Shown here: one piece after another, positions 5,875 to 33,689 of the stretch
Position numbering within the stretch: the first letter of the stretch is position 1
Layout: each line of letters opens with the position of its first letter
Assembly: GCA_963713925.1 (NCBI GenBank)
Contig: OY970212.1
Span: forward strand, 832,001-896,000
Reading direction: 5' to 3'
DNA from: an uncultured bacterium
GTDB taxonomy: Bacteria > Babelota > Babeliae > Babelales > Vermiphilaceae
Length of the DNA stretch: 64,000 nt
The notes under the pieces: model-generated
What the model was told of the DNA's origin: nothing
The model's input: only the letters and a program-made list of their open reading frames with translations
Database searches by the model: none
Program-made: the position numbers and the translations under genes

Positions 5875-5875
5875 G

Positions 5876-15678: not shown

Positions 15679-17673
15679 ATGAAACAAATACTCAGAAAAT
15701 TGAGCCTCGTTGCTCTTTTGAGCGTTTGTACATTCGTCGGAGTGACATCCGCTCGAGTAGTACAACGTTCTCAAACCGTTGATGGTGCGCGTAACTTAGC
15801 TGGCTGGACCAATCATATCAACTTGTTTGATATGGGCGGATTCTACGGCAGCTTTGCTATAACCCCCGAATATACTCATTCGTTCCGTGGTGAACGCCTT
15901 GCTGAAAATGTATTCCCGACAAACGGAGCATTAGGCTTCTGCGGACTCACCAGCCCTGCAGTTTGCAACACAGTAAACACCGGAGTCAATAATGGCTGCA
16001 ACACAGACTGTAATAAAAGATGCGGCGAATTTTTGGTACAAGGTAAAAACGTTGTAAATCGTGCGCCAAATGCTCTTCTTGGTGACTACGCTGGGCTTCC
16101 AAGCGATTACAGCTCAGTTGTAACAGTGTGTCCAAAAATCCAAAACTTCTTGGTTGACTTCAACTTGTTCCTCGGACTCGATGAGTGGCTTTGCGGAGCT
16201 TGGTTCCGTATTCATGCACCAGTTGTGTATGCAAAATGGAATCTCGACTACAATGAAACCAAAGTTTCAGGATCAGGCGTAGCTGGCTATCCAGCTGGTT
16301 ATTTTGCACCTGCTGCAGTCCCAGTTGCTCAATTGAACCCAACCTTTGGTGCATACCTTGCAGGCGGAGTTCCAACATTGAACAACGGTGTTGTTTTTGA
16401 ACCACTATCAAACAGCAAATTGTGCGGATTTAACTCATCTGCAACATCATCATGCAAAAATGACTGCTCATCAAACAGCCGTCACAGAACCTTGCTTTCA
16501 GACATTGAGTTCGCTTTTGGCTGGAACTTCTGGCAAGATGAAGACTACCATCTTGGTCTTGGTTTAGTTGTTCGTGCTCCTACAGGAAACCGTATCAATG
16601 ATACATTCTTGTTTGAACCGATCATTGGTAACGGACACCACTGGGAACTTGGTGGCTTGATCACATCCCACTACACTTTCTGGAGAAGCTGTGATTACGA
16701 TCAAAGCTTAGGTCTCTATGTTGATGCGTGGATTACCCACTTGTTCAAAACAACACAATGGCGTTCATTTGATTTGACTGCAAGCCGCGGACTCAACAAC
16801 CGCTATATGCTTGCTGAACAATTCACAACCGCTAACGTTACCGTAGGCGGAGCAGGAGCAGGAAATGTTGCCAGCGCGCAATTTGATGGTATCTACTCTC
16901 CGGTAGCCAATCTTACTTTCCAAGGTGTGAGAGTAAGTGTTCCAGTACAAGCAGATGTAGTTGCTATGTTCAACTACACCAACTGCGCATGGACATGGGA
17001 TCTTGGTTACAACTTCTGGGGCACAAGCTGTGAGAAGATTGAAACCTGCAGAAACAATATCTTGACTGGTCAAAATTGGGCACTCAAAGGTGATGCAAGC
17101 ACATACGGATTCAGCGGAACTTCACCTGTCCTATTCACTGCGCTCAGTGCAACTGAAACAGGAACATGCGCTGCTCCACTCGCAACCATCTGCTCAGGAA
17201 CCAATGGAGTTGCAATAACCAACCCTGGTGTTGACAATGCGGTTCCCGCATTTATACAACCGGCTGGAACTGTTGCATTACTCGCTGCAGCAGGCGGAGC
17301 CGCAATTGATACTTCGCTTAACCCGGTATTATTAACCGATGCTGATATCGATTATTGCAGCAACCGTGCTAAAGGTTTGACCCACAAAATATTCACTCAC
17401 TTCGCATATACATGGGAAGAGTGTGACTGCTATATCCCTTACCTAGGTATCGGTGGATTTGCTGAATTTGCACAAAAGAGCAACCGTTGCGACAACGATT
17501 GCAACACAAACTCTTGCAATACCAACTCCTGTAATACAAATTCATGCAATCTCAACACAAACTCTTGCAATACAGGATCATGTGGCACATCAACCAACAA
17601 TAACAACTCATGCCACAACGGTGCATTCTCTCAATGGGGTATTTGGCTTAAAGGCGGCGTGTCTTTTAACTAA
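15679..17673 (+). CDS. Cys-rich putative outer-membrane beta-barrel family protein, paralog 1
   Basis: AAGGAG RBS (alternative start 15649), signal peptide, conserved blocks RSQTVD.AR.L.GW, GNGHHWELG and ALKGDA, C-terminus WGIWLKGGVSFN. Confidence 0.8.
   Translation: MKQILRKLSLVALLSVCTFVGVTSARVVQRSQTVDGARNLAGWTNHINLFDMGGFYGSFAITPEYTHSFRGERLAENVFPTNGALGFCGLTSPAVCNTVNTGVNNGCNTDCNKRCGEFLVQGKNVVNRAPNALLGDYAGLPSDYSSVVTVCPKIQNFLVDFNLFLGLDEWLCGAWFRIHAPVVYAKWNLDYNETKVSGSGVAGYPAGYFAPAAVPVAQLNPTFGAYLAGGVPTLNNGVVFEPLSNSKLCGFNSSATSSCKNDCSSNSRHRTLLSDIEFAFGWNFWQDEDYHLGLGLVVRAPTGNRINDTFLFEPIIGNGHHWELGGLITSHYTFWRSCDYDQSLGLYVDAWITHLFKTTQWRSFDLTASRGLNNRYMLAEQFTTANVTVGGAGAGNVASAQFDGIYSPVANLTFQGVRVSVPVQADVVAMFNYTNCAWTWDLGYNFWGTSCEKIETCRNNILTGQNWALKGDASTYGFSGTSPVLFTALSATETGTCAAPLATICSGTNGVAITNPGVDNAVPAFIQPAGTVALLAAAGGAAIDTSLNPVLLTDADIDYCSNRAKGLTHKIFTHFAYTWEECDCYIPYLGIGGFAEFAQKSNRCDNDCNTNSCNTNSCNTNSCNLNTNSCNTGSCGTSTNNNNSCHNGAFSQWGIWLKGGVSFN
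17500..17583 (+). repeat. Coding CNTNS pentapeptide repeats
   Basis: CNTNS x3, CNLNTNS, CNTGS, C; 15-nt period with synonymous variation. Confidence 0.9.
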
Positions 17674-17744
17674 TCCCAAAGTCGTATAAAAGTCCAAGAC
17701 GTATTCACGTTTTGGGAACAAAAAAACGACAAAACTAGTACTTA

Positions 17745-17775
17745 AAGGCTCGGAGAAATCCGGGCCTTTATTTTT
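17745..17775 (+). terminator. Intrinsic terminator after paralog 1
   Basis: AAAGGCTCGGA-GAAA-TCCGGGCCTTT followed by ATTTTT. Confidence 0.75.
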
Positions 17776-17885
17776 ACCCCCGCCTACCTTCATAGAACCA
17801 TGGCCGCGTGCGGCGAAGCTTCAGCGAAGACGTACGCAACTGACAAGTTCCACCTCGTACTTCGTACTGCTGCGGCGAGGTAGTA
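17776..17885. repeat. Palindromic repeat composite
   Basis: Contains GGCCGCGTGCGGCGAAGCTTCAGCGAAGACGTACG, a variant of the module inside the MITEs at 41158 and 53937. Confidence 0.65.
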
Positions 17886-17985
17886 TCGTTACACTTGGAG
17901 CCATAAATGCGCCAAAATATCGCCTCTATTTCAGTTTCGGTTTGTCCTGCGGTGAAAATATTTTTCAAAATAATATCACACACAC

Positions 17986-18026
17986 TAGACAAATCATTTT
18001 TAGTTTTTATAGAATAACCATCAATA
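17986..18026 (+). promoter_or_regulatory. Putative promoter of paralog 2
   Basis: TAGACA-18 nt-TAGAAT...CCATCAATA, conserved with 20267-20307. Confidence 0.6.
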
Positions 18027-18124
18027 CGACTTACTATGATTATGTAACAGGGAGGAGAAAGTAAAACAGAACGTAAAAAAAGATAATGATGAAGTTTAAT
18101 AACACCCATAAAAGGAGTGAGTTT

Positions 18125-20191
18125 ATGTTACACAAATTTGTGAAATCAATGAGCCTCGCTGCTCTTGCGAGCGCGTGTACATTCGTCGGAGTTGTCTCCG
18201 CACGAGTGGTACAACGGTCACAAACCGTTGACGCAGCACGTAACTTGGCAGGATGGACCAACCAAATCAATTTATTTGATATGGGCGGATTATATGGCAG
18301 CTTTGCAATAACCCCTGAATATACTCGTTCGTTCCGTGGTGAACGTCTTGCTGAAGATGTGTTACCAACCAATGGACCTTTGGGCTTCTGCGGACTCACC
18401 AGTCCTTTCACAAGCCCAGTTTGCTTTACCGGATGTAACACAGGCTGCAACACCAACAGTTGCAACTCAAACTGCGACAACAACTGTGAATCATTCTTAG
18501 TGCAAGGTAGCACCGTTGCAAGCCGTGCGCCAAATTCACTTCTTGCCGACTATGCTGGTCTTCCAACTGACTACAGCTCAACAGTAAGAATTTGCCCACG
18601 CATCCAAAACTTCTTAGTTGATTTCAACTTATTCCTCGGCCTTGATGAATGGCTTTGTGGCATGTGGTTCCGCGTTCACGCACCAGTTGTGTACGCAAAA
18701 TGGAATTTGAACTACAATGAAACAGCTGCTGCAGGAACCTTCACTGGGGCATACCCAGCTGGTTACTTTGCTCCTGCCGCAGTCCCAGTCAGCCAATTGA
18801 ACACATCATTCGGTTCATATCTTGCTGGCGCAGTGCCAAACTTATCTGTTCCAACATCACCAGCGACAACTGCCGCAACCTTCCAAGCATTGAGCAACAG
18901 CAGACTCTGCGGATTTAACGGACTCTCCTCATCAACCTGCAATGACAGCTGCTCAAACAGCCGTCATACAACTCGCCTTTCAGACATTGAGTTCGCTCTT
19001 GGCTGGAATTTCTGGCAGGATGAAGATTACCATGTTGGTCTTGGCTTAGTTATTCGTGCTCCTACAGGAAATCGTATCAATGATACATTCTTGTTTGAAC
19101 CAATCGTTGGTAACGGACACCATTGGGAACTTGGTGGCTTGTTCACATCACACTACACCTTCTGGAGAAGCTGCGACTACGATCAAAGCTTCGGCCTCTA
19201 TGTTGATGCATGGATCACCCACTTGTTCAAAACAACCCAATGCCGCTCATTCGACTTGTGCTGCTCCCGTGGTTTGAACAACCGTTATATGTTAGCTGAA
19301 CAATTCACAACAAATAATGCAACAGCATTGACAGGAACACCAGTTGGCGGTGTTGCAACTCTTGCAACAGCAGTGTTCTCAGGTGCATATGCTCCCGTTG
19401 CAAACCTCACCTTCCAAAACGTGAAAGTAAGCGTCCCAGTACAAGCGGACGTGGTTGCAATGTTTAACTACACCAACTGCGGATTCACTTGGGATCTTGG
19501 TTACAACTTCTGGGGCACAAGCTGCGAGAAGATTGAAACCTGCGGAACCAATGTGTTGACCGGCAAAAACTGGGCTCTCAAAGGTGATGCTGAAACCTAC
19601 GGCTTCTCATCGATAGCCCCAGCGCTTTCAACACCTCTCAGCGCAACGGAAACTGGCTCATGCACAGCTCCTAAAGCAACGATTTGCTCAGGAACCAATC
19701 ATGGTAGCCTCTTGAATGCGGGAATTGATAATCCTGCTGTTGCTACTGCTACATTAGGAGGAGTGGTTGGTATTCCTCTTGCTAACGGAGCGGGCACTGA
19801 CGGTATCGAAACCTCAATTCAACCAGTATTCTTAACAGATGCTGACATTGATTTCTGCAGCAACCGTAGCAAGGGCTTGACCCACAAAATCTTCACCCAC
19901 TTTGCATGGACATGGGAAGATTGCGACTGCTACGTTCCATTCTTAGGAATTGGTGGATTTGCTGAATTTGCACAAAAGAGCAACCGTTGCGATAACGACT
20001 GTGGAACAAACTTCTGCAACACTAACTCATGCAATACTAACTTCTGCAATACAAATTCATGCAATACCAACTCGTGCAGCACAAACTCATGCAACACCGG
20101 CTCATGCGGTGAAAACAATAACAACTCATGCCGCAATGGTGCATTCTCGCAATGGGGTATTTGGCTTAAAGGCGGAGTGTCTTTTAACTAA
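18125..20191 (+). CDS. Cys-rich putative OM barrel family protein, paralog 2
   Basis: AAGGAG RBS; closely similar to paralog 1; ends WGIWLKGGVSFN. Confidence 0.8.
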   Translation: MLHKFVKSMSLAALASACTFVGVVSARVVQRSQTVDAARNLAGWTNQINLFDMGGLYGSFAITPEYTRSFRGERLAEDVLPTNGPLGFCGLTSPFTSPVCFTGCNTGCNTNSCNSNCDNNCESFLVQGSTVASRAPNSLLADYAGLPTDYSSTVRICPRIQNFLVDFNLFLGLDEWLCGMWFRVHAPVVYAKWNLNYNETAAAGTFTGAYPAGYFAPAAVPVSQLNTSFGSYLAGAVPNLSVPTSPATTAATFQALSNSRLCGFNGLSSSTCNDSCSNSRHTTRLSDIEFALGWNFWQDEDYHVGLGLVIRAPTGNRINDTFLFEPIVGNGHHWELGGLFTSHYTFWRSCDYDQSFGLYVDAWITHLFKTTQCRSFDLCCSRGLNNRYMLAEQFTTNNATALTGTPVGGVATLATAVFSGAYAPVANLTFQNVKVSVPVQADVVAMFNYTNCGFTWDLGYNFWGTSCEKIETCGTNVLTGKNWALKGDAETYGFSSIAPALSTPLSATETGSCTAPKATICSGTNHGSLLNAGIDNPAVATATLGGVVGIPLANGAGTDGIETSIQPVFLTDADIDFCSNRSKGLTHKIFTHFAWTWEDCDCYVPFLGIGGFAEFAQKSNRCDNDCGTNFCNTNSCNTNFCNTNSCNTNSCSTNSCNTGSCGENNNNSCRNGAFSQWGIWLKGGVSFN
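20000..20107 (+). repeat. Coding CxT[NG][SF] pentapeptide repeats (7 units)
   Basis: CGTNF CNTNS CNTNF CNTNS CNTNS CSTNS CNTGS C. Confidence 0.9.
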
Positions 20192-20220
20192 TCCTCTTTT
20201 TGCGTAAAAACACGAATAAA

Positions 20221-20259
20221 AAAAGCGTGGCTCTGATTTCTCAGAGTCACGCTTTTTTT
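20221..20259 (+). terminator. Intrinsic terminator after paralog 2
   Basis: AAAAGCGTGGCTCTGA-TTTC-TCAGAGTCACGCTTTTTTT. Confidence 0.8.
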
Positions 20260-20266
20260 AAAATGC

Positions 20267-20307
20267 TGGACAAATCAATTTTGAGTCCTATAGACTAGCC
20301 ATCAATA
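20267..20307 (+). promoter_or_regulatory. Putative promoter of paralog 3
   Basis: TGGACA-18 nt-TAGACT...CCATCAATA. Confidence 0.6.
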
Positions 20308-20401
20308 ATGAAGTGATCATGAATGATTGTTCGAGTATGACATTGTGTAACTTGAATAATCATTCGGATATAATCCAATACACAAAAAAAGGAGTGTATG
20401 T

Positions 20402-22351
20402 ATGTTACACAAGTTTGTGAAAGCAATGAGCCTTGCAGCTCTCTGCGCTTGCTTGTTCAACACCAATGCGCACGTTGTTCAGCGTTCGCAAACGGTTGAT
20501 GCCGCACGTAATTTAGTCGGCTGGGAACATGAAATTAACCGCTTTGATGTTGGTGATTCTTATGGTGCTTTTGCCATTACTCCGGAATACACTCAATCAT
20601 TCAACCGTAAAAAAATAGGCCGGGGTATCTTTGGTTCAGCATTCATTTCAAATGATTGCTCAAAAAAGTGTGAATCTGAGTGTGGGACCGTTTCTATACA
20701 GGGTTCAACTGTTCCAAACCGCTCAAGCACTGCTTTACTTGCTGATTACTTTGGCTTGGCTCCTGATTTTGATGGCACGGTTACTGTATGCCCAAAAATT
20801 CAAAACTTCCTTATTGATTTCAACCTCTTTTTAGGGCTTGATAACTGGCTTTGTGGTGCTTGGTTCCGCGTGCAAGCTCCCTTAGTATATGCAAAATGGA
20901 AACTTGATTTCTGCGAAGCGGGAATAGGAACCGATGGATATCCGGCAGGCTATTTTGGGCCGACAGCAGTTGCTAACTCATCGCTCAATCAGTCTTTCTC
21001 CTCATATTTACAAGGCGGAGTACCCAATCTTGGCAGTGTAGTCACCTTTAACCCATTAACAAACAGTAGACTTTGCAGATCTAATTCAAACGGAAACAAT
21101 GGTTCATGTGGAACGAACGGCTCATGTGGCACTTCATGTTTTAATAAAAATGGTGATTGCAAAGATACCTTCCGTCTTTCAGACATTGAATTCGCTCTTG
21201 GCTGGAACTTCTGGCAAGATGAAGATTATCATGTCGGTCTTGGCGTAGTACTTCGTGCTCCGACCGGAAATCGTATTAACGAAACATTCTTGTTCCAACC
21301 AATTGTTGGTAACGGACATCATTGGGAACTTGGTGGCTTGCTTACCACACACTGGACATTCTGGAATGGATGTGATGGTAATCAAAGCTTAGGTATTTAT
21401 GTTGACGCATGGATCACTCACTTATTTAAAGCGAGCCAATGTCGTAGTTTTGACCTCTGCTGCAGAGGGCCATTAAGCCGCTACATGCTTGCAGAAGAAA
21501 TGACCACGAATGTTGTTGATAGCCTTGCCGGAGGAGCAACGACCACTACGCTCACTTCTTCAACCTATCAATTCAATAATATTCTCTCACCAATTGCAAA
21601 CTTCACCTTCCAAAAAGTTGATGTGAGCATTCCGGTGCAAGCAGACGTTGTAGCACTATTGAATTACACTCACTGCGACTTCTCATGGGATATCGGATAC
21701 AACTTCTGGGGCACTTCATGCGAAAAAATCTGCCCATGCAAAAATGTATTTAACAATAACTTAGTTGCACTTAAAGGCGATGCTTCCGTGTATGGATTTG
21801 AACCTGTTGCGGGATCTCCTGCTACCTTTTTCCCTGTTCCATTGGGAGCAACGGAAACAGGCGATTGCTCTGCTCCGCAAGCTACCATCTTTGCCGGAAC
21901 GAACAATGGCAGTGTGGTAAATGCGGGAATTGAGAATGCACAATTGGCCTGGTCGGGTGTTACTGAATTACTGAACACTCCATCATTAGTCACAGGTCTA
22001 CAAACTCACACCTCTATCCAGCCCCAACTGCTTACCAACAACGATGTTGATTATGCCGGTGCTCGTCGCAAGGGCTTAACCCACAAAGTATTTACCAACT
22101 TTAGCTACAGCTGGGAAGATTGTGAATGCTATGTTCCATTCTTGGGAATCGGCGGATTTGCTGAATTTGCGCAAGGTGGAAATGGTTGCTGTGATAATGA
22201 TTGTGAATCATCATGCAATCCATGCATTGTAACATCCCCAAGCTGTGTTCCTGCCTGCAGCAGAAATAATACCTGCGATTTGGGCATTGCTTGCTCAAAC
22301 GGAGCATTCTCACAATGGGGTATCTGGCTTAAGGGTGGATTTGCATTCTAA
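20402..22351 (+). CDS. Cys-rich putative OM barrel family protein, paralog 3
   Basis: AAGGAG RBS; same conserved blocks; ends WLKGGFAF. Confidence 0.8.
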   Translation: MLHKFVKAMSLAALCACLFNTNAHVVQRSQTVDAARNLVGWEHEINRFDVGDSYGAFAITPEYTQSFNRKKIGRGIFGSAFISNDCSKKCESECGTVSIQGSTVPNRSSTALLADYFGLAPDFDGTVTVCPKIQNFLIDFNLFLGLDNWLCGAWFRVQAPLVYAKWKLDFCEAGIGTDGYPAGYFGPTAVANSSLNQSFSSYLQGGVPNLGSVVTFNPLTNSRLCRSNSNGNNGSCGTNGSCGTSCFNKNGDCKDTFRLSDIEFALGWNFWQDEDYHVGLGVVLRAPTGNRINETFLFQPIVGNGHHWELGGLLTTHWTFWNGCDGNQSLGIYVDAWITHLFKASQCRSFDLCCRGPLSRYMLAEEMTTNVVDSLAGGATTTTLTSSTYQFNNILSPIANFTFQKVDVSIPVQADVVALLNYTHCDFSWDIGYNFWGTSCEKICPCKNVFNNNLVALKGDASVYGFEPVAGSPATFFPVPLGATETGDCSAPQATIFAGTNNGSVVNAGIENAQLAWSGVTELLNTPSLVTGLQTHTSIQPQLLTNNDVDYAGARRKGLTHKVFTNFSYSWEDCECYVPFLGIGGFAEFAQGGNGCCDNDCESSCNPCIVTSPSCVPACSRNNTCDLGIACSNGAFSQWGIWLKGGFAF

Positions 22352-22403
22352 AATAAAGACTTGCAGTCGTTATTTTAGAAAAAATTCGAACTTAACAAAA
22401 TCA

Positions 22404-22440
22404 AAAGGGACTCGAAGAAATTCGAGTCCCTTCTTTTTTT
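22404..22440 (+). terminator. Intrinsic terminator after paralog 3
   Basis: AAGGGACTCGAA-GAAA-TTCGAGTCCCTT followed by a T-run. Confidence 0.8.
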
Positions 22441-22541
22441 AAACTCTTGTGCATTATTTAATACTCTAGCTACAGTTATGCAAAGATAGTATGAACATAC
22501 CCCACATTACACATGGGGGCCCCATATGAAAGGAAATAGCC

Positions 22542-24578
22542 ATGATGCAGCTTGCATACCGCACCTTTAAAAAACTTGTTCTTGTCGGTGCTTTTTGCAT
22601 GACGAGCATAAGTTTTGCTCACATTTTAATGCGTTCACAAAGTGTCGATTCCGCACGTGAGCTTGCTGGTTGGGCACATAAGGTGAATCTTTTTGCCGCT
22701 GATGCATGCGACTGGTATGGCACCTTTGCCGTCACTGCAGAATACGCACAATCATTCAACTCAAAGAAAATCGCGCGCTGTCTTTTTGGGGATAGTTTAA
22801 TAAACAGCTCATGCAGCAATGATTTTTCTTGTGCGCAAGTGAATGTTTCAGGAAGCCGCGTTGCCAACAGAGGAAACAAAGATCTGCTGGCCGATTATTT
22901 CGGATTACCTACCGACTTTCAAAGCGCATTCTCAATCAAACCGACGGTACGAAGCTTTATTGTTGATTTTGATTTTTACTTTGGGCTCGACCGCTGGATG
23001 TCCGGCTCATGGTTCAGAATTCATGCGCCAATCGTATACACTGATTGGAAATTGAATTTACATGAATCAGTCTTGAATGAAGGCGTCAACCCTTATGTTG
23101 AAGGCTATTTCTCACCTGTTGCAGTTGCGCGAGGTAATTTAAACACAAGCTTCTCCAGTTATTTAGCGGGAGCAGCTCCAACATTAACGGGCAATGGAAC
23201 ATTTGATCCAATATTTCTACCACTCGAGCACATGCGTGTTCCGGAAGGCACCGTAACAAACGGACTCAACCATGTTCCTGGGTCGTGTAATGGAAAAGGT
23301 TTACATACAACGAAACTTTCCGATATCCAAGCCGTGCTTGGCTGGAACTTTTGGCAAAATGAAGATTATCATGTTGGAGTAGGGGCTCGCATTTCCATTC
23401 CAACCGGCACACAAATTAAGGATTTTTTCCTTTTCCAGCCAATCGTGGGTAACGGACACCATTTTGAAGCTGGTGGTATGTTCACCTCACACTACACATT
23501 CTGGCGCAGCTGCGATGAAGATAGAAGCATGGGTATCTATGTTGACGCGAACATAACACATCTTTTTGACACAAAACAATGTCGTTCATTTGATCTTTGC
23601 GGACATGGCGACAACAGCCGTTATATGTTGGCAATGCAATTAAACTCTCCGTATCGAGACGCCAATGGTGCCTTTGCCGGATATGCGCTCACCGGAAATC
23701 CTGAAGGAGCGACACCTCCTGCATATATTGCTCCGGCTACTGGTTACACCCGGGCTCAAGCCGCATTTGACGGCATCTTTGCGCCCGTTGCAAATATTGC
23801 CTTCGGCGCTGTGAATGTCAATATTCCGGTGCAGGCAGATGTAACGGTGATGTTTAATTATAAGCAATGTGGCTTTGAATTTGATCTTGGTTACAACCTC
23901 TGGGCGACAACCTGCGAACAAATAAACTTCATCGACAATTGCCCGATCATCTGTCCACAAACATGGGCTCTCAAAGGCGATGCGCATGTGTATGGATTTG
24001 ATGTTTCAGCTTCTCCGGTGGTTGCGGGTGCCGTTCCATTATCAGCAACAGAAAGCGAAGCAACTATTTTCTCGGGTACCAATTATGTTGCCGGAAACAC
24101 CATTGCTCAAGCACAGACCAATATCGGCATCGATCATCCCCAATTTGCCTATGGAGACAGCACCAATATCAACAGTACTTTAATCCCAGGACGCGCCCTG
24201 TTTGCCACAAGCGCAAACCCACAACCAGCAATCTTGGCACAGACAAACACCTCAATCCAACCGATATTTCTTTCCGACTGCGATCTTGACATTGCCGGCG
24301 CACGAGCACGTGGACTTACCAACAAAATTTTCACCCATATAAGCTATACATGGGAAGATTGTTGTCTATCACCCTATTTTGGGATTGGTGGAAAAGCTGA
24401 GTTTGCGCAAAACAATGCAAACAAGTGTGGAAATGGCTGCAACGTCGTTTCAAATGAATCAATCTGCGATCAAGTGAACACCTGTTTTGCTGGATGTAAT
24501 GATGATTGTGGCGCATCCTGTGCGCGATGCAATCTCTCGGAATGGGGTATTTGGTTAAAGGGAGGAATTTCTTTTTAA
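22542..24578 (+). CDS. Cys-rich putative OM barrel family protein, paralog 4
   Basis: Same conserved blocks; ends WLKGGISF. Confidence 0.8.
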   Translation: MMQLAYRTFKKLVLVGAFCMTSISFAHILMRSQSVDSARELAGWAHKVNLFAADACDWYGTFAVTAEYAQSFNSKKIARCLFGDSLINSSCSNDFSCAQVNVSGSRVANRGNKDLLADYFGLPTDFQSAFSIKPTVRSFIVDFDFYFGLDRWMSGSWFRIHAPIVYTDWKLNLHESVLNEGVNPYVEGYFSPVAVARGNLNTSFSSYLAGAAPTLTGNGTFDPIFLPLEHMRVPEGTVTNGLNHVPGSCNGKGLHTTKLSDIQAVLGWNFWQNEDYHVGVGARISIPTGTQIKDFFLFQPIVGNGHHFEAGGMFTSHYTFWRSCDEDRSMGIYVDANITHLFDTKQCRSFDLCGHGDNSRYMLAMQLNSPYRDANGAFAGYALTGNPEGATPPAYIAPATGYTRAQAAFDGIFAPVANIAFGAVNVNIPVQADVTVMFNYKQCGFEFDLGYNLWATTCEQINFIDNCPIICPQTWALKGDAHVYGFDVSASPVVAGAVPLSATESEATIFSGTNYVAGNTIAQAQTNIGIDHPQFAYGDSTNINSTLIPGRALFATSANPQPAILAQTNTSIQPIFLSDCDLDIAGARARGLTNKIFTHISYTWEDCCLSPYFGIGGKAEFAQNNANKCGNGCNVVSNESICDQVNTCFAGCNDDCGASCARCNLSEWGIWLKGGISF

Positions 24579-24617: not shown

Positions 24618-24647
24618 AAGAGGGCTTGCATTGCGAGCCCTCTCTTT
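24618..24647. terminator. Terminator between convergent genes
   Basis: GAGAGGGCTTGC-ATT-GCGAGCCCTCTC followed by TTTT. Confidence 0.7.
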
Positions 24648-25516: not shown

Positions 25517-25603
25517 TCCTTACAAATACATGATCTGTTACATAAAAGTGATGACAGATTACCATGATGTGCTTGTAAGTCGAGGATTTTGATTATTTCG
25601 CGA

Positions 25604-25984
25604 TTAGCCTAAGGCATCCGCCATCGTTATCGTAAATGTACCTGTATCATCTTGTACGATTGTTACGTATCTCGGTCTTTTTTCACAAACAATCTTCCAT
25701 TGCTTCAACAAGTCGACCAATTGCCCGATAGAGCATTCCATTCCTCCATCATATGGATCATCCATATGCTTACGCCCCATTATTATCCGATTTCCCAGCT
25801 TCTCAAGAATCGTGTAATTGCTCCGCATGGTATGAATTTCGGGATTGAGAAGACTCGAAATGGCATTATCAGGAGATAACCCCCAATCATCATTCAGAAA
25901 AAAATAGACTAAATTCAATCCAGCGTCTCCTGAATCCTTAGAATCGTAGCCTAATACTGATTGTTTTAAATATAAAATTTTCAT
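25604..25984 (-). CDS. Hypothetical small protein, possibly orphan immunity-like
   Basis: ~126-aa soluble ORF without a signal peptide. Confidence 0.55.
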   Translation of the reverse strand: MKILYLKQSVLGYDSKDSGDAGLNLVYFFLNDDWGLSPDNAISSLLNPEIHTMRSNYTILEKLGNRIIMGRKHMDDPYDGGMECSIGQLVDLLKQWKIVCEKRPRYVTIVQDDTGTFTITMADALG

Positions 25985-26184
25985 TGCAAATTCCCGACTC
26001 AAATCCATTAAAAAAAAGAATTGTCGAGATAAAGATGAGTCGCATGCTTTCTCCTTGTATGTATTTATTGCCCAAAATATAACTCGGTTTGAATGAAATG
26101 TCTTTTTCTTGAAACACCGAAATTGAAGTTGTTAGAGTAAACATCGTGCGATCTTAAAATCGCTTTTTTCAGTGAGGGTAAGTT

Positions 26185-28122
26185 ATGATGATGAAAAAAA
26201 TAAAAATAAGCCTTTTTCTTATAAGTTCTTGCATGTTCACGCAGGCATATAGCTCATTGGCCCATCGCTCTCAGACGGTTGATCTCGCGCGTTATATGGT
26301 TGGCTGGGCAAATCAGGTCTATCTTCCTGATGCCGACTATTTTAATTTCAGCTTCGCCGTTATCCCGCAATTTCGACAAACCGTTAGTGAACATCGCGTC
26401 GCGCGCACCCTATTTGGAGACGATTGTCTTACACAGCAGTGCTGTCCGACAATCACGATTTCCGGAAGCACTGTTTCCGGACGTAATGCAACCGATTGGC
26501 TCGCTGATTATTTTGGACTTCCAACCGATTATCAAAGTACGGTAAAGTTTAAGCCGAACATCGATGAATTTATTTTTGATATGTCACTTTATATCGGACT
26601 CGATAGAATTTTATCCGGATTATTTGTGCGCTTACAATCGCCGCTCGTTGCACAACGAACGAAGTTGCATGCTTCTGAAACTATTATAAATTCGGGCGCT
26701 CTACGCTCCAACACGAGCCCAAGCTTATGCCCGCAGTATCCCGCCGGATATTTTGCTCCCGAAGCCGTCGATTGCTTCTACTTAAATAAAACATTCACGC
26801 GATATATTGGCCTTCATCAAGCACCACTGCTCTCGCTTGACGGAGTTCCCGTGTTTGAACCACTCGTCTACGGCAAATGGGGGGTTCCTTGCTTTGAAAA
26901 ACTTGAACGAACTGATTTTAGTGATTTAGAAATCATTCCCGGATGGAATTTTTTACTCTCCGATCATTATCATTTAGGCCTCGGCGCAGTAATTCGAGCA
27001 CCAATTGGCAATAGTTTGACGGGAGAATTCTTGTTTGAAAATGTTGTCGGAAACGGAAGACACTGGGAACTAGGAGGGTTGCTGACAGGTTCATGGAGAT
27101 TCTGGAACGATGACGAACGTGAACGCACCGTTATGTTGTGGGTCGAAGCAACCATCACTCATCTATTTGCTGCGCATCAATGTCGCGTATTTGGTCTCAA
27201 GAATCACGGTTGTTCAAGCCAATACATGCTCGCTCAGCTCATGGAACCAACCACTAATGAATTTTTATTTGCCAACGGTTCAAACACGCCGGGCGGTCCC
27301 ACGATTGCAACCGTACAACCAAATTTTCAAACCGGTGGGCTATTTACCGCCGTTGCTAATTTAACTCGCACGAAAGTGTGCGTTCGCAATGATTTGCAAG
27401 CAGATGTTGCAGCAATGATGTCATTCATCCAAGGCGGCTTTGAATTTGATTGGGGATACGAATTTTGGTGTAAAACGAAAGAAAAATTGTGCGTACAATC
27501 ACAAGCATTTACCACGAAGCAGTGGGCATTAAAAGGTGATGCATTTGTGTATGGATTTGGCGCAACTGATGCAGTGACTGGCGCCAATGCAATTATTCCG
27601 CTTTCGGCAACACAAAGCACTGCCACGATTCACGCAGGCAACAACCGACCAATCGGCGCACCGGTCATCACCTCTGGAACAAACAACCAACAAACAAATC
27701 CGGGCATTGACAATCCGGAATTTGGAGTCACCTCAACAATCATTGCTAACACAACTGATCGCATTGTTTATCAACCGGGGCTCACTGCAACCGATCTCAA
27801 CCAACAAAGAACTTCTTTACAACCCGTTCTTTTGAGCAACGATGATGTTGATTACAGTGGCATTCCGGGAGTTTGCTCGCACAAAGTGTTCGCCAATATT
27901 AGTTATGCACTTGATATGGAATGTGTGCAACCCTATGTTGGCATCGGCGGGTATTATGAATTTGGGCGCAATTTAAAAGAAAAATCAAAAGAAGCCTGTT
28001 TGGAATGTTGCTCACCGGTACTTACCTGTTCGCCGAATATTTTTCAAAACGAGCGCACAAATAAACGCGTAGATGCACTGTCGGCATGGAGCTTGTGGTT
28101 GAAGGCTGGAATTTCATATTAA
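26185..28122 (+). CDS. Cys-rich putative OM barrel family protein, paralog 5 (divergent)
   Basis: RSQTVDLAR..GW, LADYFGLPTDY, GNGRHWELGG, ALKGDA; ends WLKAGISY. Confidence 0.8.
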   Translation: MMMKKIKISLFLISSCMFTQAYSSLAHRSQTVDLARYMVGWANQVYLPDADYFNFSFAVIPQFRQTVSEHRVARTLFGDDCLTQQCCPTITISGSTVSGRNATDWLADYFGLPTDYQSTVKFKPNIDEFIFDMSLYIGLDRILSGLFVRLQSPLVAQRTKLHASETIINSGALRSNTSPSLCPQYPAGYFAPEAVDCFYLNKTFTRYIGLHQAPLLSLDGVPVFEPLVYGKWGVPCFEKLERTDFSDLEIIPGWNFLLSDHYHLGLGAVIRAPIGNSLTGEFLFENVVGNGRHWELGGLLTGSWRFWNDDERERTVMLWVEATITHLFAAHQCRVFGLKNHGCSSQYMLAQLMEPTTNEFLFANGSNTPGGPTIATVQPNFQTGGLFTAVANLTRTKVCVRNDLQADVAAMMSFIQGGFEFDWGYEFWCKTKEKLCVQSQAFTTKQWALKGDAFVYGFGATDAVTGANAIIPLSATQSTATIHAGNNRPIGAPVITSGTNNQQTNPGIDNPEFGVTSTIIANTTDRIVYQPGLTATDLNQQRTSLQPVLLSNDDVDYSGIPGVCSHKVFANISYALDMECVQPYVGIGGYYEFGRNLKEKSKEACLECCSPVLTCSPNIFQNERTNKRVDALSAWSLWLKAGISY

Positions 28123-28178
28123 GTTTTGCGAGCGAAAATGTGGAAGACTATTTTTGAGTAGTAAATAAAGGGCTACAA

Positions 28179-28970
28179 TTAAGCAATACGCTCAATCACT
28201 AATTGGGCTGTTGATATCGGAGATTTATAAAAAAGCAACCCCGGATCCAAGAAAAAAGTAGTTTGCAATTCAATGGATAGCTTATCTCCTGCATTGATCG
28301 CAACTATACATGTCCCAAATGAATTGCTTGGCAATCTCGGAAAAAGGTTGTCATTTAGAACAACAGTGTTATTGACCTGAGTTATTGGCGTACCGTTAAT
28401 TGCTAATATACTACTAAGAATATCTGATGCAGCTGGAATCGAACTACCAGTGAAGGACGTACCAGATACACTCCATGATACAAAGTAAATTCCCGTCTCC
28501 GGACAAATAAGATTACCGTTAGAACCAGATTCAATAACCCAATTTGAAGAGGCATCAAATGGAACAAAGGCTATATCACCGGAGGTCAATGAATAAGCAT
28601 AATTGTCATCTTCTGCAGTTACATCTACACCTGTCGGCCCCGTTAAACCAATTGATCCCGTCGCTCCCTGCGCACCTCTCGCTCCCATTGCTCCGATTGA
28701 TCCATTAGCGCCAGTACTACCCTGCGCACACGGATTTAATCCTGAGTTCGGGGCATCAATAATGTCGCATACTTTCAAATCTCCATGAATGGTTACATTC
28801 CCGGAGACAAGCAATGATGGAGTTTTCAATGATTGTGTAACATATAAGTGTGATATGATTTGAACCGGATCAATTGATTTTTTTTGATTCTCTGAATCAT
28901 CTGCCTGCATGTATACAGAGATAGTCGTCACTAAAAATAATTGCACTACATTTCGTCTTGACATACTCAT
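28179..28970 (-). CDS. Secreted collagen-like protein with BclA/C1q-like C-terminal domain (copy 3)
   Basis: Signal peptide, Gly-X-Y run GSTGANGSIGAMGARGAQGATGSIGLTGPTG, then TGIYFVSWSV...QLVIERIA. Confidence 0.75.
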   Translation of the reverse strand: MSMSRRNVVQLFLVTTISVYMQADDSENQKKSIDPVQIISHLYVTQSLKTPSLLVSGNVTIHGDLKVCDIIDAPNSGLNPCAQGSTGANGSIGAMGARGAQGATGSIGLTGPTGVDVTAEDDNYAYSLTSGDIAFVPFDASSNWVIESGSNGNLICPETGIYFVSWSVSGTSFTGSSIPAASDILSSILAINGTPITQVNNTVVLNDNLFPRLPSNSFGTCIVAINAGDKLSIELQTTFFLDPGLLFYKSPISTAQLVIERIA

Positions 28971-28984
28971 TCCTTTAATTAAAA

Positions 28985-29836
28985 TTATGTGATTTGTTTA
29001 ATCACAAATCCTAAGCAAGTCGCGGAGGCCGCTGCGGGGGGGACAGGAAGTCTATCAACAGCAAATTCAAAAATAAGCGGTTCATTTGCCGTATAAAAAA
29101 TAATAGCTGTCCCTGTTGAAAGACCAATGTTTGCATCTGTTCCATTTCCAGTTACTTGTAATGATGTTGCACTCCCTGGAACCTCGACACCACTCAGCGT
29201 AATTCTGAAGGTACAAATAATAGGATTAGCATCACTACTATCAAGAGTCATAATCCATGAAACCGCATAAACACCCGAGCGAGGCGAAGTAAAAATGCCT
29301 GTCGTAGTATCCAAAGTCCAATCATTTAAAATGGATGGTGTTGTTGTGGGCGAAGGGTAGGAAAATGCATTAAATACAAGTGGCACTGATAGCGTTATTG
29401 AATTACTCGATTGGATGTAAGCATAGCTATCCAAGCCATTAAAAGGCGCCCCGCTCGCTCCATTTGATCCAGTCATACCAACAGACCCAGTTCCTCCCAT
29501 TGCCCCGGTAACTCCTGACGCTCCAGTCATTCCTGCTGAACAATTACAAGTATTTGACAAAATGAAGGTGCCATTGATATTTCCACATACTTTTAAATTA
29601 CCACATACTGTCGCATTTTTTAGAACGAGCAACGAATTTGCACGAAGAGATTGTTTTACCAATAAGTGAGCTATTGTCGAATAGTATATCTTTTTTGATG
29701 AATCAACTTTTTTGTCAGTCGAAGCGCTATAACGAAATTGTGAAAATATGCAGATTAATAATATCTTGAAACAAACAGATTGAAAACACTTCATAATTTT
29801 TATCCAGTTACTCTTAATTTTGGAATATTTTTGCAT
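28985..29836 (-). CDS. Secreted collagen-like protein with BclA/C1q-like C-terminal domain (copy 2)
   Basis: Gly-X-Y run GMTGASGVTGAMGGTGSVGMTGSNGASG, then SGVYAVSW...VIKQIT. Confidence 0.75.
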   Translation of the reverse strand: MQKYSKIKSNWIKIMKCFQSVCFKILLICIFSQFRYSASTDKKVDSSKKIYYSTIAHLLVKQSLRANSLLVLKNATVCGNLKVCGNINGTFILSNTCNCSAGMTGASGVTGAMGGTGSVGMTGSNGASGAPFNGLDSYAYIQSSNSITLSVPLVFNAFSYPSPTTTPSILNDWTLDTTTGIFTSPRSGVYAVSWIMTLDSSDANPIICTFRITLSGVEVPGSATSLQVTGNGTDANIGLSTGTAIIFYTANEPLIFEFAVDRLPVPPAAASATCLGFVIKQIT

Positions 29837-30655
29837 TTAAGCAACACGTTCGATGGTAAGTTGAACTGACGCATTCGTAACACCTATACCAATGGCACTT
29901 AATAAGGTGTTCGCACCGCTCGATGTCCATTGAAAAACCAATGGCTCACCTGCTGTATAATTAATCAACGATACGGAATATACCTGATAAGGAGTGTTTG
30001 GATCAAGAGTTGAATTGACCATGCCGTTATTTCCTATAACAGAGCCATTAAGTAATAATTGGCTACTGATCACAAGTACTGTGCCACTCACACTTACCAT
30101 ACCCAATAATGCGAAGGTCACTAAATATGTCCCCGATTGGGAGTTGGAAAATGCTCCAGTGATATTATTATAGGTCCATCCATTAAGAATTGGCGTATTG
30201 CTAAACAAAATCGTTTGGTAGGAGTTTGGAGTTATTATTGGATCACTTCCGGTGTGATAGGCAAAAGCATAATTTGCACTGCTCAGATCCTGAGCATTCG
30301 GACCGGTTGCTCCCGTTGCACCCGTTGCTCCCGCTATGCCGATCGCACCAGTTAATCCCGCTGGACCTGTTGGTCCGGTCGCTCCGGTTGCGCATACAGT
30401 TCTACTTAATTGACCATAAATATTTCCGCATACTGTCAAATCACCACAGATGGTAACATTCCCTCCCACAAGCAACGATGCGGTACGAAATGAATTGGTG
30501 ACAAATAGATTGCGGATCACTTCACTATCCTTTCCACGCATAGAACTATGAGCATCATCACTTTGAACTGTGATAACAGTATCTCCAAGATCAATGGCAT
30601 GAAGATATTCAAGGAAGGCTAACAACAAAAAAAATCGATATGACATACGCTTCAT
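29837..30655 (-). CDS. Secreted collagen-like protein with BclA/C1q-like C-terminal domain (copy 1)
   Basis: GATGPTGPAGLTGAIGIAGATGATGATG, then SGTYLVTF...QLTIERVA. Confidence 0.78.
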   Translation of the reverse strand: MKRMSYRFFLLLAFLEYLHAIDLGDTVITVQSDDAHSSMRGKDSEVIRNLFVTNSFRTASLLVGGNVTICGDLTVCGNIYGQLSRTVCATGATGPTGPAGLTGAIGIAGATGATGATGPNAQDLSSANYAFAYHTGSDPIITPNSYQTILFSNTPILNGWTYNNITGAFSNSQSGTYLVTFALLGMVSVSGTVLVISSQLLLNGSVIGNNGMVNSTLDPNTPYQVYSVSLINYTAGEPLVFQWTSSGANTLLSAIGIGVTNASVQLTIERVA

Positions 30656-30927
30656 ATATTTTCCTATTTTTCATAATCTTTGTATTATTCATCACTATTT
30701 AGAAAATGTATCAAAGGTATATAAAACGCAATAAAAACAACATCTCTTTTTCTCATTTTTTGATGATATAAAAAAGATCTTGTGATCGTCAAAAAAAATG
30801 AGAGGCGATTTTAAAATCGTCTCTCATAAATAAAAAAATTATTTTTTCAGAAAATTACTGAGAATCTTTTTCAAGATCTGGCTCGTAATCTCCATATCGC
30901 TCGAAGAAATTTCCTTATTTTATACTC

Positions 30928-31485
30928 TCAGCGCCTATAAAGATTACCCGGTTTATTGCTTCGCACCAGAACGGGAACCCCTTGTGGATGGTCTCTTTTA
31001 ACTTCCGTATGAATTTCACTTCTTTTCACATCGGCGCTCTTTGGTATAAAATTCCTAATTTCCCCATAAATATAGGCACTGTCATAAGAGCTGTCATCGT
31101 CATCCACTTTTCCATCAATTTTATAAATGAATTTTTCATGAAGCAAATTTCTTCCCTGTATTTCTTCAAGCCTGGTCCCGTCTATCGTTTCTCTTCCAAC
31201 ATCATCTATGTAACGTAGGTTTACACACTTTCTTTCATACCATTTTTCCAGATCGTTAAATCTATGAGAAAAGGAATCTTTCGGTTTTACTGTAGCAATG
31301 TCAATCAAATCACCATTTGCATCACCAAGTTTTACTATAACCGTTCGATCTGTGTTATTATCAAATTTGACTGTACGAGGATCTTGTACGTTTTTTTTAT
31401 TTTTTGACAATTCGGCCGCACAAACTAAATGTGGACTCGCTATAAAAAAGCCACCTAATAGGCTTAAAACAACTATTTTTTTCAT
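30928..31485 (-). CDS. Hypothetical secreted protein
   Basis: 185 aa, signal peptide. Confidence 0.65.
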   Translation of the reverse strand: MKKIVVLSLLGGFFIASPHLVCAAELSKNKKNVQDPRTVKFDNNTDRTVIVKLGDANGDLIDIATVKPKDSFSHRFNDLEKWYERKCVNLRYIDDVGRETIDGTRLEEIQGRNLLHEKFIYKIDGKVDDDDSSYDSAYIYGEIRNFIPKSADVKRSEIHTEVKRDHPQGVPVLVRSNKPGNLYRR

Positions 31486-31615
31486 GCCCTTATCCCTTAC
31501 CTAAATGGACCATATCAATTATTAATTATATAGTAAAAGAACGCATTAAATCAATGAATTTTAAACAATTTGAAATAAACAAAATGGGTCTCTGGCAGCT
31601 TCCCTGGGGAAATAT

Positions 31616-31939
31616 CTATTTCTCTTCGTATGTGCACACATACTCGGCACCGTTCCAGGCTCGATAGGTTAATCGAGGGAGATTGAGTTTTTGGCCTTTT
31701 TCATCTGTTAAGCTGGCAACATTATCTTTTTTTACACATTGGATAAAGCGCAGCACCACCCGGCGGTTAGACATGGGCTCATCATCTTGCAACACAACAC
31801 GTTGGCTACCATCTTCAAAGGTTTCTTGAATATCAACCGTCCATTCTCTCCACTGAGGATGTTCCGTTACCACCGGTTGCAATTGTTTTGCCTGGACAAT
31901 TACGGTTAAAAGACTCAAAAAGAGATAAAAACGTTTCAT
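31616..31939 (-). CDS. Hypothetical secreted protein
   Basis: 107 aa, GAGGA RBS, signal peptide ending VQA. Confidence 0.65.
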   Translation of the reverse strand: MKRFYLFLSLLTVIVQAKQLQPVVTEHPQWREWTVDIQETFEDGSQRVVLQDDEPMSNRRVVLRFIQCVKKDNVASLTDEKGQKLNLPRLTYRAWNGAEYVCTYEEK

Positions 31940-32099
31940 TGCAAGTCCTCATTTATGGGGGTCCCCCATGTGCTGACATGGGGGTAATTTTATTTTAAAT
32001 ATATACAACTCCCTATCGCAAAAGCCATATATCCTTGCGCCTGCCGTGCTTATCTTAGTAGGATAAACCATAAGTATTTCTATGCGGGGGAGAATCGTA

Positions 32100-33689
32100 A
32101 TGATGAAAAAATATCTGATTTTTGCCATACCGGCGTTCATAACCAATGTAATTTCAGCTGTTCAATTTCCCTTACAGGGATACACTTTTTTAGCCCCACG
32201 CTCTCCAAGCGTTAACGCGGCGCGAGAACTGGTTGGCTGGCGAAACTATATCAATCGTGCAGACGAATGTTGGTATGGTGCCTTCAGTGTAACCCCCGAA
32301 TATAGCCAATCGTTTCGGTCAAACAGAATTGCGCAATACTTCTTTGGCGACCAACTATTACAAGTGTCCGGCAGCAATTTAAATAATCGTAACAACTACA
32401 TCTTGGCTGATTATTTTGGCTTGCCGCAGGATTTTATTGCAAATGAACTGCTTGCCCCCAAACTGATCACCGGTTTGATTGATTTTAACCTCTATCTGGG
32501 CTACAAAGATTGGTATTTCCGCATTCATGCGCCCTACTGTTGGATGAAAACGAAGTTTCCTATCAATGAAACGGTGATAGAGCCCGGGCCGAGCGACCCG
32601 TATCCGGCATTGTATATGGATTTTGGTGTTGTTAATCCTCCCAACAATTCATTCGCAACTGCAATTGCGACCGAGTCAACCTGGGGCCAGGTGAGCCAGG
32701 GCCTTAAATTTGGACGCATCGTCTGCGAGCAAAAAAAATCATCATTGGCTGAAGTGCAGATGGCACTCGGATGGAATTTTATTAACGATGCTTGCAGACA
32801 CCTCGGAGTCAACCTCCGCCTTTATGCCCCGGCGGGAAATCGCTCAAAAGGACTGTTCCTTTTTGAACCGATTGTCGGCAACGGACACCATTGGGAAGCG
32901 GGAGCCGGATTTACCGGCCATTGGATGTTGTGGGAAAAAAATGAATATCAATCAATTGCCATCTACCTCGATTTTAATATGACGCATATCTGCAAAGCCG
33001 ATCAAGTTCGTTCATTTGATTTTGGCGACCCGCACTGCGTCACACGCAATGCTAATTTCGGCAGCCGCTATATATTGGTTAAAGAATTCGACGCATCCGG
33101 AAACTATACGGGAATTTGTCAGCCGGCCATCAATTTCACAACGCTCTGCTGCTCAACCTACAACAACTTGCAAATGGATTTTGCCCTCATGGGAGCATAT
33201 TCGGGCTGTTGGCTTGATGTCGATTTCGGGTATGGCTTTTGGCTTCGCTCCAAAGAACATTTGTGCTTAAAAGGATCGATTCCTGAAAATACGATCGCGC
33301 TCAAGGGCATTCAAAATGTTGCTGCAACCATAACGACGCTCAGCAATGATACCCAATCGGCAACCGCGACATTGGAAGGCGATCCGTTTACCGAACAAGC
33401 AATTCTTACTGATGATCCATCACCACAATTTGTAAACACAGGCGATTTAAATCTTCTTTCGGCAACAACACCAACCGCGTTTACACAAAAATTTTTCTGG
33501 AACCTGAGCTATGCGTGGAAAGACCTTGATTGCCAATACGTAGCACCCTTTTTAGGATTGGGCGGACAAATTGAGTTTGAAAGTACCCGTGGAACAAACA
33601 CCTGCAGCCTTGGGCCGATCGCAGTTGAACCAAACCAAAATTCGATTGCACAATGGAGTTTGTGGGTAAAAGGAGGGATTGGGTTTTAA
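32100..33689 (+). CDS. Putative OM barrel family protein, paralog 6 (short; lacks most Cys-rich inserts)
   Basis: RSPSVNAARELVGW, LADYFGLP, GNGHHWEAG, ALKG; ends WVKGGIGF. Confidence 0.8.
   Translation: MMKKYLIFAIPAFITNVISAVQFPLQGYTFLAPRSPSVNAARELVGWRNYINRADECWYGAFSVTPEYSQSFRSNRIAQYFFGDQLLQVSGSNLNNRNNYILADYFGLPQDFIANELLAPKLITGLIDFNLYLGYKDWYFRIHAPYCWMKTKFPINETVIEPGPSDPYPALYMDFGVVNPPNNSFATAIATESTWGQVSQGLKFGRIVCEQKKSSLAEVQMALGWNFINDACRHLGVNLRLYAPAGNRSKGLFLFEPIVGNGHHWEAGAGFTGHWMLWEKNEYQSIAIYLDFNMTHICKADQVRSFDFGDPHCVTRNANFGSRYILVKEFDASGNYTGICQPAINFTTLCCSTYNNLQMDFALMGAYSGCWLDVDFGYGFWLRSKEHLCLKGSIPENTIALKGIQNVAATITTLSNDTQSATATLEGDPFTEQAILTDDPSPQFVNTGDLNLLSATTPTAFTQKFFWNLSYAWKDLDCQYVAPFLGLGGQIEFESTRGTNTCSLGPIAVEPNQNSIAQWSLWVKGGIGF

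Follow-up and report, generated by a model that had tools for sequence, protein, structure and literature searches.

The described systems that come closest to the proteins reported here are the channels of COG4313, which are credited with a part in taking up hydrophobic molecules such as sphingosine (PMC4493636), the plugged barrel of the amyloid secretion channel FapF, and the chlamydial MOMP/OmcA/OmcB complex, to which belong cysteine-rich outer-membrane proteins whose redox transitions have been described (PMC4217174). Here, we analyze an array of six paralogous genes in a 64,000-nucleotide stretch of contig OY970212.1 (the window, from whose first letter positions are counted unless a contig coordinate is given), part of a genome of the phylum Dependentiae, and find that their products are very probably 12-stranded outer-membrane β-barrels of the COG4313/FapF superfamily. 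Protists are the hosts of the Dependentiae, a widespread phylum of obligate parasites of which very few are in culture. Their envelope has been described only as “degenerated”; Babeliales are reported to be without lipopolysaccharide (LPS) genes and TM6 genomes to be without the synthesis of lipids, amino acids, and nucleotides (PMC4776705).

The assignment to this superfamily comes from structure prediction. Copies 6 and 3 (copies, or paralogs, are numbered 1 to 6 in their order along the plus strand of the window) were modeled with AlphaFold2 (AF2), which gave a mean predicted local distance difference test (pLDDT) value of 90.1 and a predicted template modeling (pTM) score of 0.85 for copy 6, from an alignment of 42 sequences, and a pLDDT of 82.2 and a pTM of 0.83 for copy 3, from an alignment of 48. 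DSSP assigns 12 long strands to the copy 6 model (residues 64-77, 127-141, 144-167, 225-235, 239-249, 272-286, 290-311, 354-374, 379-396, 466-478, 488-502, and 520-535), between which turns of 2 to 9 residues alternate with loops of 17 to 69 residues. In an exhaustive structural comparison of this model (VIA-align), the best match is the COG4313 channel 4RL8 (chain 4rl8_A; Z score of 22.1, root mean square deviation of 2.7 Å over 251 of 267 residues, 15% identity), followed by FapF, 5O65 (chain 5o65_A; Z score of 21.6, 2.7 Å over 255 of 276 residues); other 12-stranded barrels form the next tier, at Z scores of 16 to 17.5, and Campylobacter MOMP reaches 7.6. The same two structures head the Foldseek matches (FapF, E value of 2e-9; 4RL8, 1.2e-7). 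The structural alignments begin at model residues 48 and 53, which correspond to residue 2 of the 4rl8 chain and residue 94 of FapF. The suggestion of the initial annotation that these proteins are outer-membrane barrels is thus borne out at the level of prediction.

Barrels of this kind usually have periplasmic termini, short periplasmic turns, and long loops outside, and it is by this rule, and not from the model coordinates, that we place the long loops on the outer face. When the five long paralogs are mapped onto the topology of copy 6, their strands have the same lengths except for strand 3 (28 versus 24 residues), as do four of the five turns (T5 has 6 to 7 residues versus 9), and their gain in length falls wholly within loops L1, L2, L4, L5, and L6 plus the 4 residues of strand 3. 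Differences in length are confined to six segments between strands, which we infer to face outward. The predicted surface loops hold ~250 to 400 extra residues and most of the cysteines of the long copies; copy 2, for instance, has 8 + 3 + 2 + 4 + 10 = 27 Cys in L1, L2, L4, L5, and L6, out of 34 when the count starts four residues ahead of the N-terminal motif. The remaining loop, L3, is the most conserved segment of the alignment (mean column identity of 0.75, against 0.30 for L6, the least conserved). It spans residues 250 to 271 of copy 6, between strands 5 and 6, with a P-x-G and a GNG motif at its two bases; P250, G252, and G266-N267-G268 (copy 6 numbering) show no variation among the six paralogs or across the 42-sequence alignment, and PTG...GNG occurs in 187 of 240 homologs, the looser P.G...GNG in 226 of 240. 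The N-terminal segment bearing the motif RS..V..AR..GW, which precedes strand 1, is likewise highly conserved, with an AF2 pLDDT of ~88 to 90 in the copy 6 model. Taken as a whole, with less assurance than for the fold itself, we consider it probable from these models that the array belongs to a Dependentiae-wide family of outer-membrane barrels of the COG4313/FapF fold, in which the N-terminal segment probably lies in the barrel lumen and the extra residues and most cysteines lie in surface loops.

Sequence comparison bears on this reading from both sides. Among ESM-Atlas clusters, the closest named ones to copy 6 and to copy 3 bear PF13557 (Phenol_MetA_deg, the Pfam family of the 4RL8 channel) on 21 to 24% of their members, as do 25 of the 30 named matches of copy 3. 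Across 151 genomes of the phylum, the PF13557 model recovers bona fide members of ~310 amino acids (aa), with E values of 1e-30 to 1e-43, and also many partial matches (model positions ~63 to 150) inside frames of 500 to 700 aa; of seven such long frames above the cut-off that were fetched, six match the hidden Markov model (HMM) of the present family with E values of 1e-26 to 1e-140, and the seventh, a nonmember by that HMM, scores 22.3 bits to PF13557. Several results weigh against the reading. PF13557 hits none of the six paralogs at an E value of ≤1 in hmmscan; in a search of their own genome with the model, the one match is a sub-threshold one, in copy 4 (positions 23181-23447, E value of 0.009), whose 15.3 bits compare with a cut-off of 22; of the six family-member frames, hmmscan scores one at 25 bits and one at 21.2 and returns no hit for the remaining four; and a profile-profile comparison (hhalign) of the family with eight bona fide PF13557 proteins from Dependentiae falls short of significance (E value of 0.43), the sole aligned stretch being the PTG loop. 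The proteins are, moreover, twice the size of their solved relatives, members in 8 of the 12 families of the phylum that were sampled lack the Cys-rich trait (some of these members are Cys-free), and the genome encodes an OprB-type porin, so that the barrel family need not be the general porin. A profile of the six proteins searched against PDB sequences returned only three chance-level rows (E values of 0.34 to 1.5). On the predicted structures, the family is not a new fold but an enlarged and distant offshoot of the COG4313/FapF superfamily; since the Pfam sequence threshold is failed, it is best called a new subfamily, not a member of PF13557.

The array consists of six plus-strand open reading frames (ORFs) of 535 to 701 aa (Table 1) that are 27 to 73% identical in BLASTP: copies 1 and 2 share 73%, copy 1 shares 54, 43, and 35% with copies 3, 4, and 5, respectively, and copy 6 shares 27 to 31% with the others, each value spanning ~620 to 740 aligned positions. 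In a six-way full-length alignment the mean column identity is 53% (33 to 38% for copy 6 versus the rest), and by their sequences the six ORFs are true paralogs. The features that the initial annotation had read from the letters, namely, six related genes with signal peptides, common sequence blocks, and a terminal strand resembling the β-signal, all stand. The blocks RS..V..AR..GW, L.DY.GL, GWNF, GNG.H.E.G, and ALKG are invariant or near-invariant in the alignment; each N-terminus has a basic stretch, a hydrophobic stretch, and an A-x-A-like site, as judged by eye and not by a signal-peptide program; and all six proteins carry the C-terminal pattern W..W.K.G..[FY], which also fits 216 of 240 homologs. 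A β-signal-like last strand in every copy, together with the two Omp85 genes of the genome, is what substrates of the β-barrel assembly machinery would be expected to show. Copies 1 and 2 have one extra Asn after the pattern, and F-N, not a terminal aromatic residue, is the ending of 78 of 120 long-type homologs (P0131-P0250). A conserved Asn beyond the β-signal, as in this long type, is unusual.

Two start codons call for comment: the ORF of paralog 1 has an alternative start at 15649 (its length is counted from the start at 15679), and the true start of paralog 2 is likely a Met 13 codons further downstream, from its alignment with copy 3. The hairpins listed after copies 1, 3, and 4, which are strong terminator-like matches known solely from a consensus scan, suggest separate transcription of the genes. 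The genome, a single contig of 1.32 Mb with 40.8% GC and an estimated completeness of 95.75%, encodes outside the window a seventh close paralog (C1:1291126-1293030) and three distant members (family HMM E values of 1e-32 to 1e-37), which brings the family HMM total to seven close and three distant members.

Table 1. Positions of the array genes and of other features of the window and genome
Feature	Position	Strand	Remarks
Paralog 1, long Cys-rich type	15679..17673	+	664 aa, 28 Cys; ends F-N; family HMM E 6.9e-176
15-bp tandem repeat, in frame, 3.5 copies	17499..17550	+	In last-loop insert of paralog 1
Terminator-like hairpin, 3' of paralog 1	17743..17770	+	Consensus scan match
Paralog 2, long Cys-rich type	18086..20191	+	701 aa, 35 Cys; ends F-N; family HMM E 2.4e-179
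15-bp tandem repeat, in frame, ~6 copies	20006..20107	+	Part of the last-loop insert in paralog 2
Paralog 3, long Cys-rich type	20402..22351	+	649 aa, 33 Cys; AF2 modeled
Terminator-like hairpin, 3' of paralog 3	22405-22432		Consensus scan match
Paralog 4, long type	22542..24578	+	678 aa, 24 Cys
Terminator-like hairpin, 3' of paralog 4	24619-24643		Consensus scan match
Paralog 5, long type, deep branch in tree	26185..28122	+	645 aa, 18 Cys
Three tandem paralogs, collagen-repeat/BclA_C-like	28179-28970, 28985-29836, 29837-30655	-	Flanked by copies 5 and 6
Paralog 6, short type without Cys-rich inserts	32082..33689	+	535 aa, 13 Cys; AF2 modeled
OprB-family carbohydrate-selective porin	43675-45093	-	PF04966, E 7e-23
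PLD-like protein, Fic/DOC protein, CdiI-type immunity protein	3153-7915	-	CdiI type: PF24172, E 6.5e-24
MraW, MurE, FtsK, BacA			Upstream neighbors of the array
VKOR homolog, stand-alone	G000:C1:278622-278987		169 aa; locus L003
Cys-rich ORF P0251	G000:C1:1083515-1083976		151 aa; locus L022

Beyond this genome, the family extends throughout the phylum. Queries of a database clustered at 90% identity return 687 homologs for copy 6 and 977 for copy 3, nearly all of them without a name or called “hypothetical protein,” with a few naming Vermiphilus pyriformis, TM6, or Candidatus Dependentiae, and the 42-sequence profile, searched against 1.84 billion proteins, retrieves 2,794 representatives at 50% identity with an E value of ≤0.001, of which 1,602 have an E value of ≤1e-30. 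A family HMM search across Dependentiae, as the initial annotation had proposed, matches all 201 sampled genomes (120 of 120 genera, in 20 families), most with at least 5 to 8 matches each, counts that are lower bounds (at most seven candidates were scored per genome). One homolog bears the UniRef name “Bacterial surface antigen (D15) domain-containing protein,” which we take to be automatic; the six proteins have no Omp85 match. Another, P0180, is the only one of the 120 listed copy 3 homologs with a precomputed match to PF27846.1.

Direct scans of the six proteins give no Pfam or NCBIfam match at an E value of ≤1. A literature search, in which papers naming Dependentiae together with “outer membrane protein” were judged by title, found no description of this Dependentiae protein family, nor is it mentioned in the accessible portions of PMC4776705 or PMC6561590. 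The family is, then, unnamed and apparently undescribed, and the earlier claim that it is unannotated holds insofar as no Pfam or NCBIfam name applies to the six proteins; it does not hold for their kinship, which the COG4313/FapF fold, the PTG motif, and the weak partial matches to PF13557 make known.

The homologs fall into two types. In the short type, which comprises copy 6 and its orthologs, the medians are 525 aa and 1.36% Cys, and copy 6 is an ortholog of the ~525-aa form that occurs phylum-wide; in the long type, they are 652 aa and 3.9% Cys, with 15 to 64 Cys per protein. Arrays in which long copies adjoin a single short one recur in other genera (e.g., in genomes G083, G094, G107, and G123). 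In a FastTree phylogeny of 106 sequences, whose long-type sample was drawn by the copy 3 search and is hence biased towards that copy, copies 1 to 3 form a lineage-specific cluster, copy 4 groups with an ortholog, copies 5 and 7 branch deeply, and copy 6 falls within the short-type clade.

What sets the long copies apart is their cysteine. The six copies contain 2.4 to 5.1% Cys, versus 1.3% for all ORFs of the genome of at least 200 aa, and the Cys-rich inserts lie at the three fixed places to which the initial annotation had assigned them (near the N-terminus, before LSDIE, and before the last strand), except that copy 6 has none. Two other loops hold additional cysteines, as does a conserved C-[DE]-C turn. 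This turn belongs to a motif, W-E-[DE]-C-[DE]-C-Y, present in copies 1 to 4 between strands 10 and 11 (residues 479-487 of copy 6); its C-x-C sits in a presumed periplasmic turn, where copy 6 has a single Cys. In an alignment of 44 long-type sequences, Cys fills half or more of the rows in 16 columns, and the last loop accounts for seven of these columns. The insert of that loop measures 31 to 84 aa in the long type; Ser, Asn, Thr, Gly, and Asp abound in it, and its 4 to 18 Cys recur every 4 to 5 residues. The 15-bp tandem repeats in the last-loop inserts of paralogs 1 and 2 each encode approximately one CNTNS-like pentapeptide, and hence one Cys, per unit. Contigs from two soil-metagenome runs match only in short, low-depth pieces, none of which spans these repeats.

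The high cysteine content is lineage-specific. Judging from one further genome in each of ten other families of the phylum (thin sampling, in which some ORFs may be cut by locus ends), members with at least 3% Cys occur in families f3 (3 of 6 ORFs) and f7 (4 of 6), and none occur in f2 (0 of 4), f4 (0 of 3), f5 (0 of 8), f6 (0 of 8, each with 0 to 1 Cys), f9 (0 of 3), f10 (0 of 3), f11 (0 of 11), or f12 (0 of 4). In addition, two members from f8 have 4.3 and 3.2% Cys; overall, high Cys content is found in 4 of the 12 families sampled. From these sequences, the barrel works without cysteines in many lineages, and, with members Cys-poor in eight families, any disulfide role is an add-on and not the core function.

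Where the cysteines are abundant, their likely state can be judged from location, prediction, and number. The VKOR homolog and the predicted external location make it likely that the loop cysteines are oxidized, and we regard disulfides of one kind or another in these loops as reasonably likely. In the copy 3 model, the internal segments with a pLDDT below 50 are residues 87-91, 229-246, 248-251, 520-533, and 595-625. With 520-533 as the exception, these fall in the three Cys-rich inserts, for which AF2 thus predicts no ordered mini-domain rich in disulfides. The number of cysteines is even in 37 of 64 last-loop inserts and in 40 of the 81 long-type homologs with a locatable N-terminal motif (118 examined), counts for which the mature N-terminus was set by motif and is approximate. 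Cysteine counts are, then, as often odd as even, and closed intramolecular pairing is not enforced. A role of these Cys/His-rich loops in metal binding is also conceivable.

These observations bear on the proposal that the Cys-rich loops form intermolecular disulfides and so lock the barrels, perhaps together with further Cys-rich envelope proteins, into a rigid, redox-switchable coat of the extracellular stage, convergent with the chlamydial complex, an analogy first drawn in the initial annotation. The difference in Cys content between the long and short types, the predicted external position of inserts that AF2 leaves unstructured, the repeat that adds one Cys per unit, the absence of a preference for even counts, and the presence of VKOR all agree with such a coat. 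So does the Cys richness of a few other predicted envelope proteins, among them the 151-aa ORF P0251, which has a signal-peptide-like N-terminus, is very basic, matches no Pfam family, and has 16 Cys in ~125 mature residues; it is possibly a small Cys-rich envelope partner, unrelated to OmcB. Free Chromulinavorax particles, for their part, are described (PMC6561590) as bounded by two membranes, with a condensed nucleoid and dark material in the periplasm, the last two of which would also suit a coat. On the other side, neither Chlam_OMP (PF01308; E value of ≤1, genome-wide and in the six) nor Chlam_OMP6 (PF03504, OmcB) has a match in the genome, although neither search found a positive control among 14 control genomes; DsbA (PF01323, PF13462) and DsbB (PF02600) were not found in the genome; the members in 8 of the 12 sampled families are Cys-poor or Cys-free; secreted-like ORFs, delimited by a permissive and crude signal-peptide heuristic, are not Cys-enriched as a class (1.36% versus 1.23%; p = 0.35); and the parity figures hang on a motif-based guess of the mature N-terminus. 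On balance, we consider the coat rather unlikely. Its fullest form appears slightly less likely still: an LPS-less outer membrane would be built on doubled-size barrels, and in several lineages hypervariable single-Cys pentapeptide repeats would cross-link neighboring barrels into a redox-switchable shell of the free, infectious particle, an independent invention of the chlamydial strategy on another barrel scaffold, in which repeat slippage would tune the number of thiols.

A second alternative is that the proteins are surface adhesins or variable antigens, in which the barrel is a mere anchor, the loops bind host structures, and the array provides host-range or antigenic variety. The initial annotation had likewise seen surface variants in the paralogs, and most of the differences do fall in predicted surface loops: for the pair of copies 1 and 2, the strands are identical at 179 of 199 positions (90%) without gaps, and the loops at 266 of 387 (69%), with all 29 gap positions in loops. 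The lineage-specific expansion of copies 1 to 3 and the in-frame tandem repeats in loops fit this alternative too. L3 and the N-terminal segment are, however, the most conserved parts of the proteins (copies 1 and 2 are identical at 21 of 22 positions of L3), which points to a conserved channel or gate function, and no adhesin domain was detected with Pfam or NCBIfam. A purely adhesive role is quite unlikely, more so than the cross-linked coat; adhesin and channel roles are nevertheless compatible, not exclusive.

How barrels of the COG4313/FapF type might serve these organisms can be sketched by analogy. The conserved N-terminal segment would plug the lumen of the 12-stranded barrel, as in Pput2725 and FapF, with the invariant PTG loop as a candidate gate. 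The barrels may be the main and characteristic outer-membrane channels of these LPS-less parasites (LpxC was not found in the genome) and, on the analogy of COG4313 channels, may let molecules of host origin, hydrophobic or amphipathic, pass by the N-terminal plug; a parasite unable to make lipids would require routes for the uptake of hydrophobic molecules. The long paralogs would present a variable, fast-evolving, disulfide-stabilized crown of loops on the free particle, and the tandem copies would supply variety of surface or substrate. We put forward the channel or uptake role tentatively, by analogy with solved relatives, as a possibility somewhat short of an even chance.

The same structural matches admit an opposite direction of transport, in which the barrels would, like FapF, secrete unfolded polypeptides, such as the collagen-like proteins encoded between copies 5 and 6, instead of taking up solutes. 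FapF is one of the two best structural matches, the PTG motif is common to FapF and this family (PMC5557850), and three genes for secreted collagen-repeat/BclA_C-like proteins lie on the minus strand inside the array. The mature N-terminus, however, starts only a few residues before the plug-like motif, so that the periplasmic coiled coil, by which FapF is regulated (PMC5557850), cannot be accommodated; a neighborhood scan revealed no fap-like operon partners; and 7 to 10 copies per 1.3-Mb genome together with universal presence fit a general envelope role better. FapF-like export appears improbable, and, like the purely adhesive role, is less likely than the cross-linked coat.

Among the neighboring genes, each member of the collagen-like trio combines a signal-peptide-like N-terminus with a short repeat of the G-x-x collagen type and a C-terminal domain whose match to BclA_C in Pfam is weak and sub-threshold, and the three may be surface fibers. 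In the cluster at the start of the window, the CdiI-type immunity gene is directly downstream of an unannotated ORF of 679 aa, and a toxin-immunity pair is possible.

Present in every sampled genome, in several copies, and annotated only as hypothetical, the family is an obvious candidate for the principal outer-membrane protein of the Dependentiae and offers a handle for labeling the surface, for work on host range, and for the proteomics of particles. With it, the COG4313/FapF superfamily acquires a form of double the usual size, and the family's lineage-specific gain of Cys-rich surface loops is a testable case of possible convergence with the disulfide-stabilized envelope of chlamydiae.

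Compared with known systems, the family shares with the autotransporter β-domains of NalP and AIDA-I and with the KdgM/NanC porins the number of strands and the general geometry, but these barrels score clearly below COG4313 and FapF, the family has no passenger domain, and we found no link between them and the PTG loop. With the chlamydial MOMP/OmcA/OmcB complex it shares an obligate intracellular life with a free particle stage, as well as predicted Cys-rich outer-membrane barrel paralogs with variable surface segments. It differs from MOMP in its barrel class, the best matches here being the 12-stranded COG4313 and FapF barrels, and from the complex as a whole in that the Cys-rich trait occurs in only some lineages. 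FapF is closer: it is a plugged 12-stranded barrel, as the present proteins probably are, with a close fold match and the PTG loop motif in common; unlike FapF, the family has no N-terminal coiled-coil region, its array is without a fap operon context, and its loops are much larger. The closest counterpart is the COG4313 channel Pput2725 (4RL8), a 12-stranded barrel and the best structural match, with which the family shares a conserved segment before strand 1 (that of Pput2725 lies in the lumen [PMC4493636]) and, through PF13557, weak partial sequence similarity around the PTG loop. From the COG4313 channels it is distinguished by its length (535 to 701 versus ~270 to 310 aa, the excess being in five loops), by its Cys-rich inserts, and by its 7 to 10 copies per genome, compared with the one member in P. 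putida F1 (PMC4493636).

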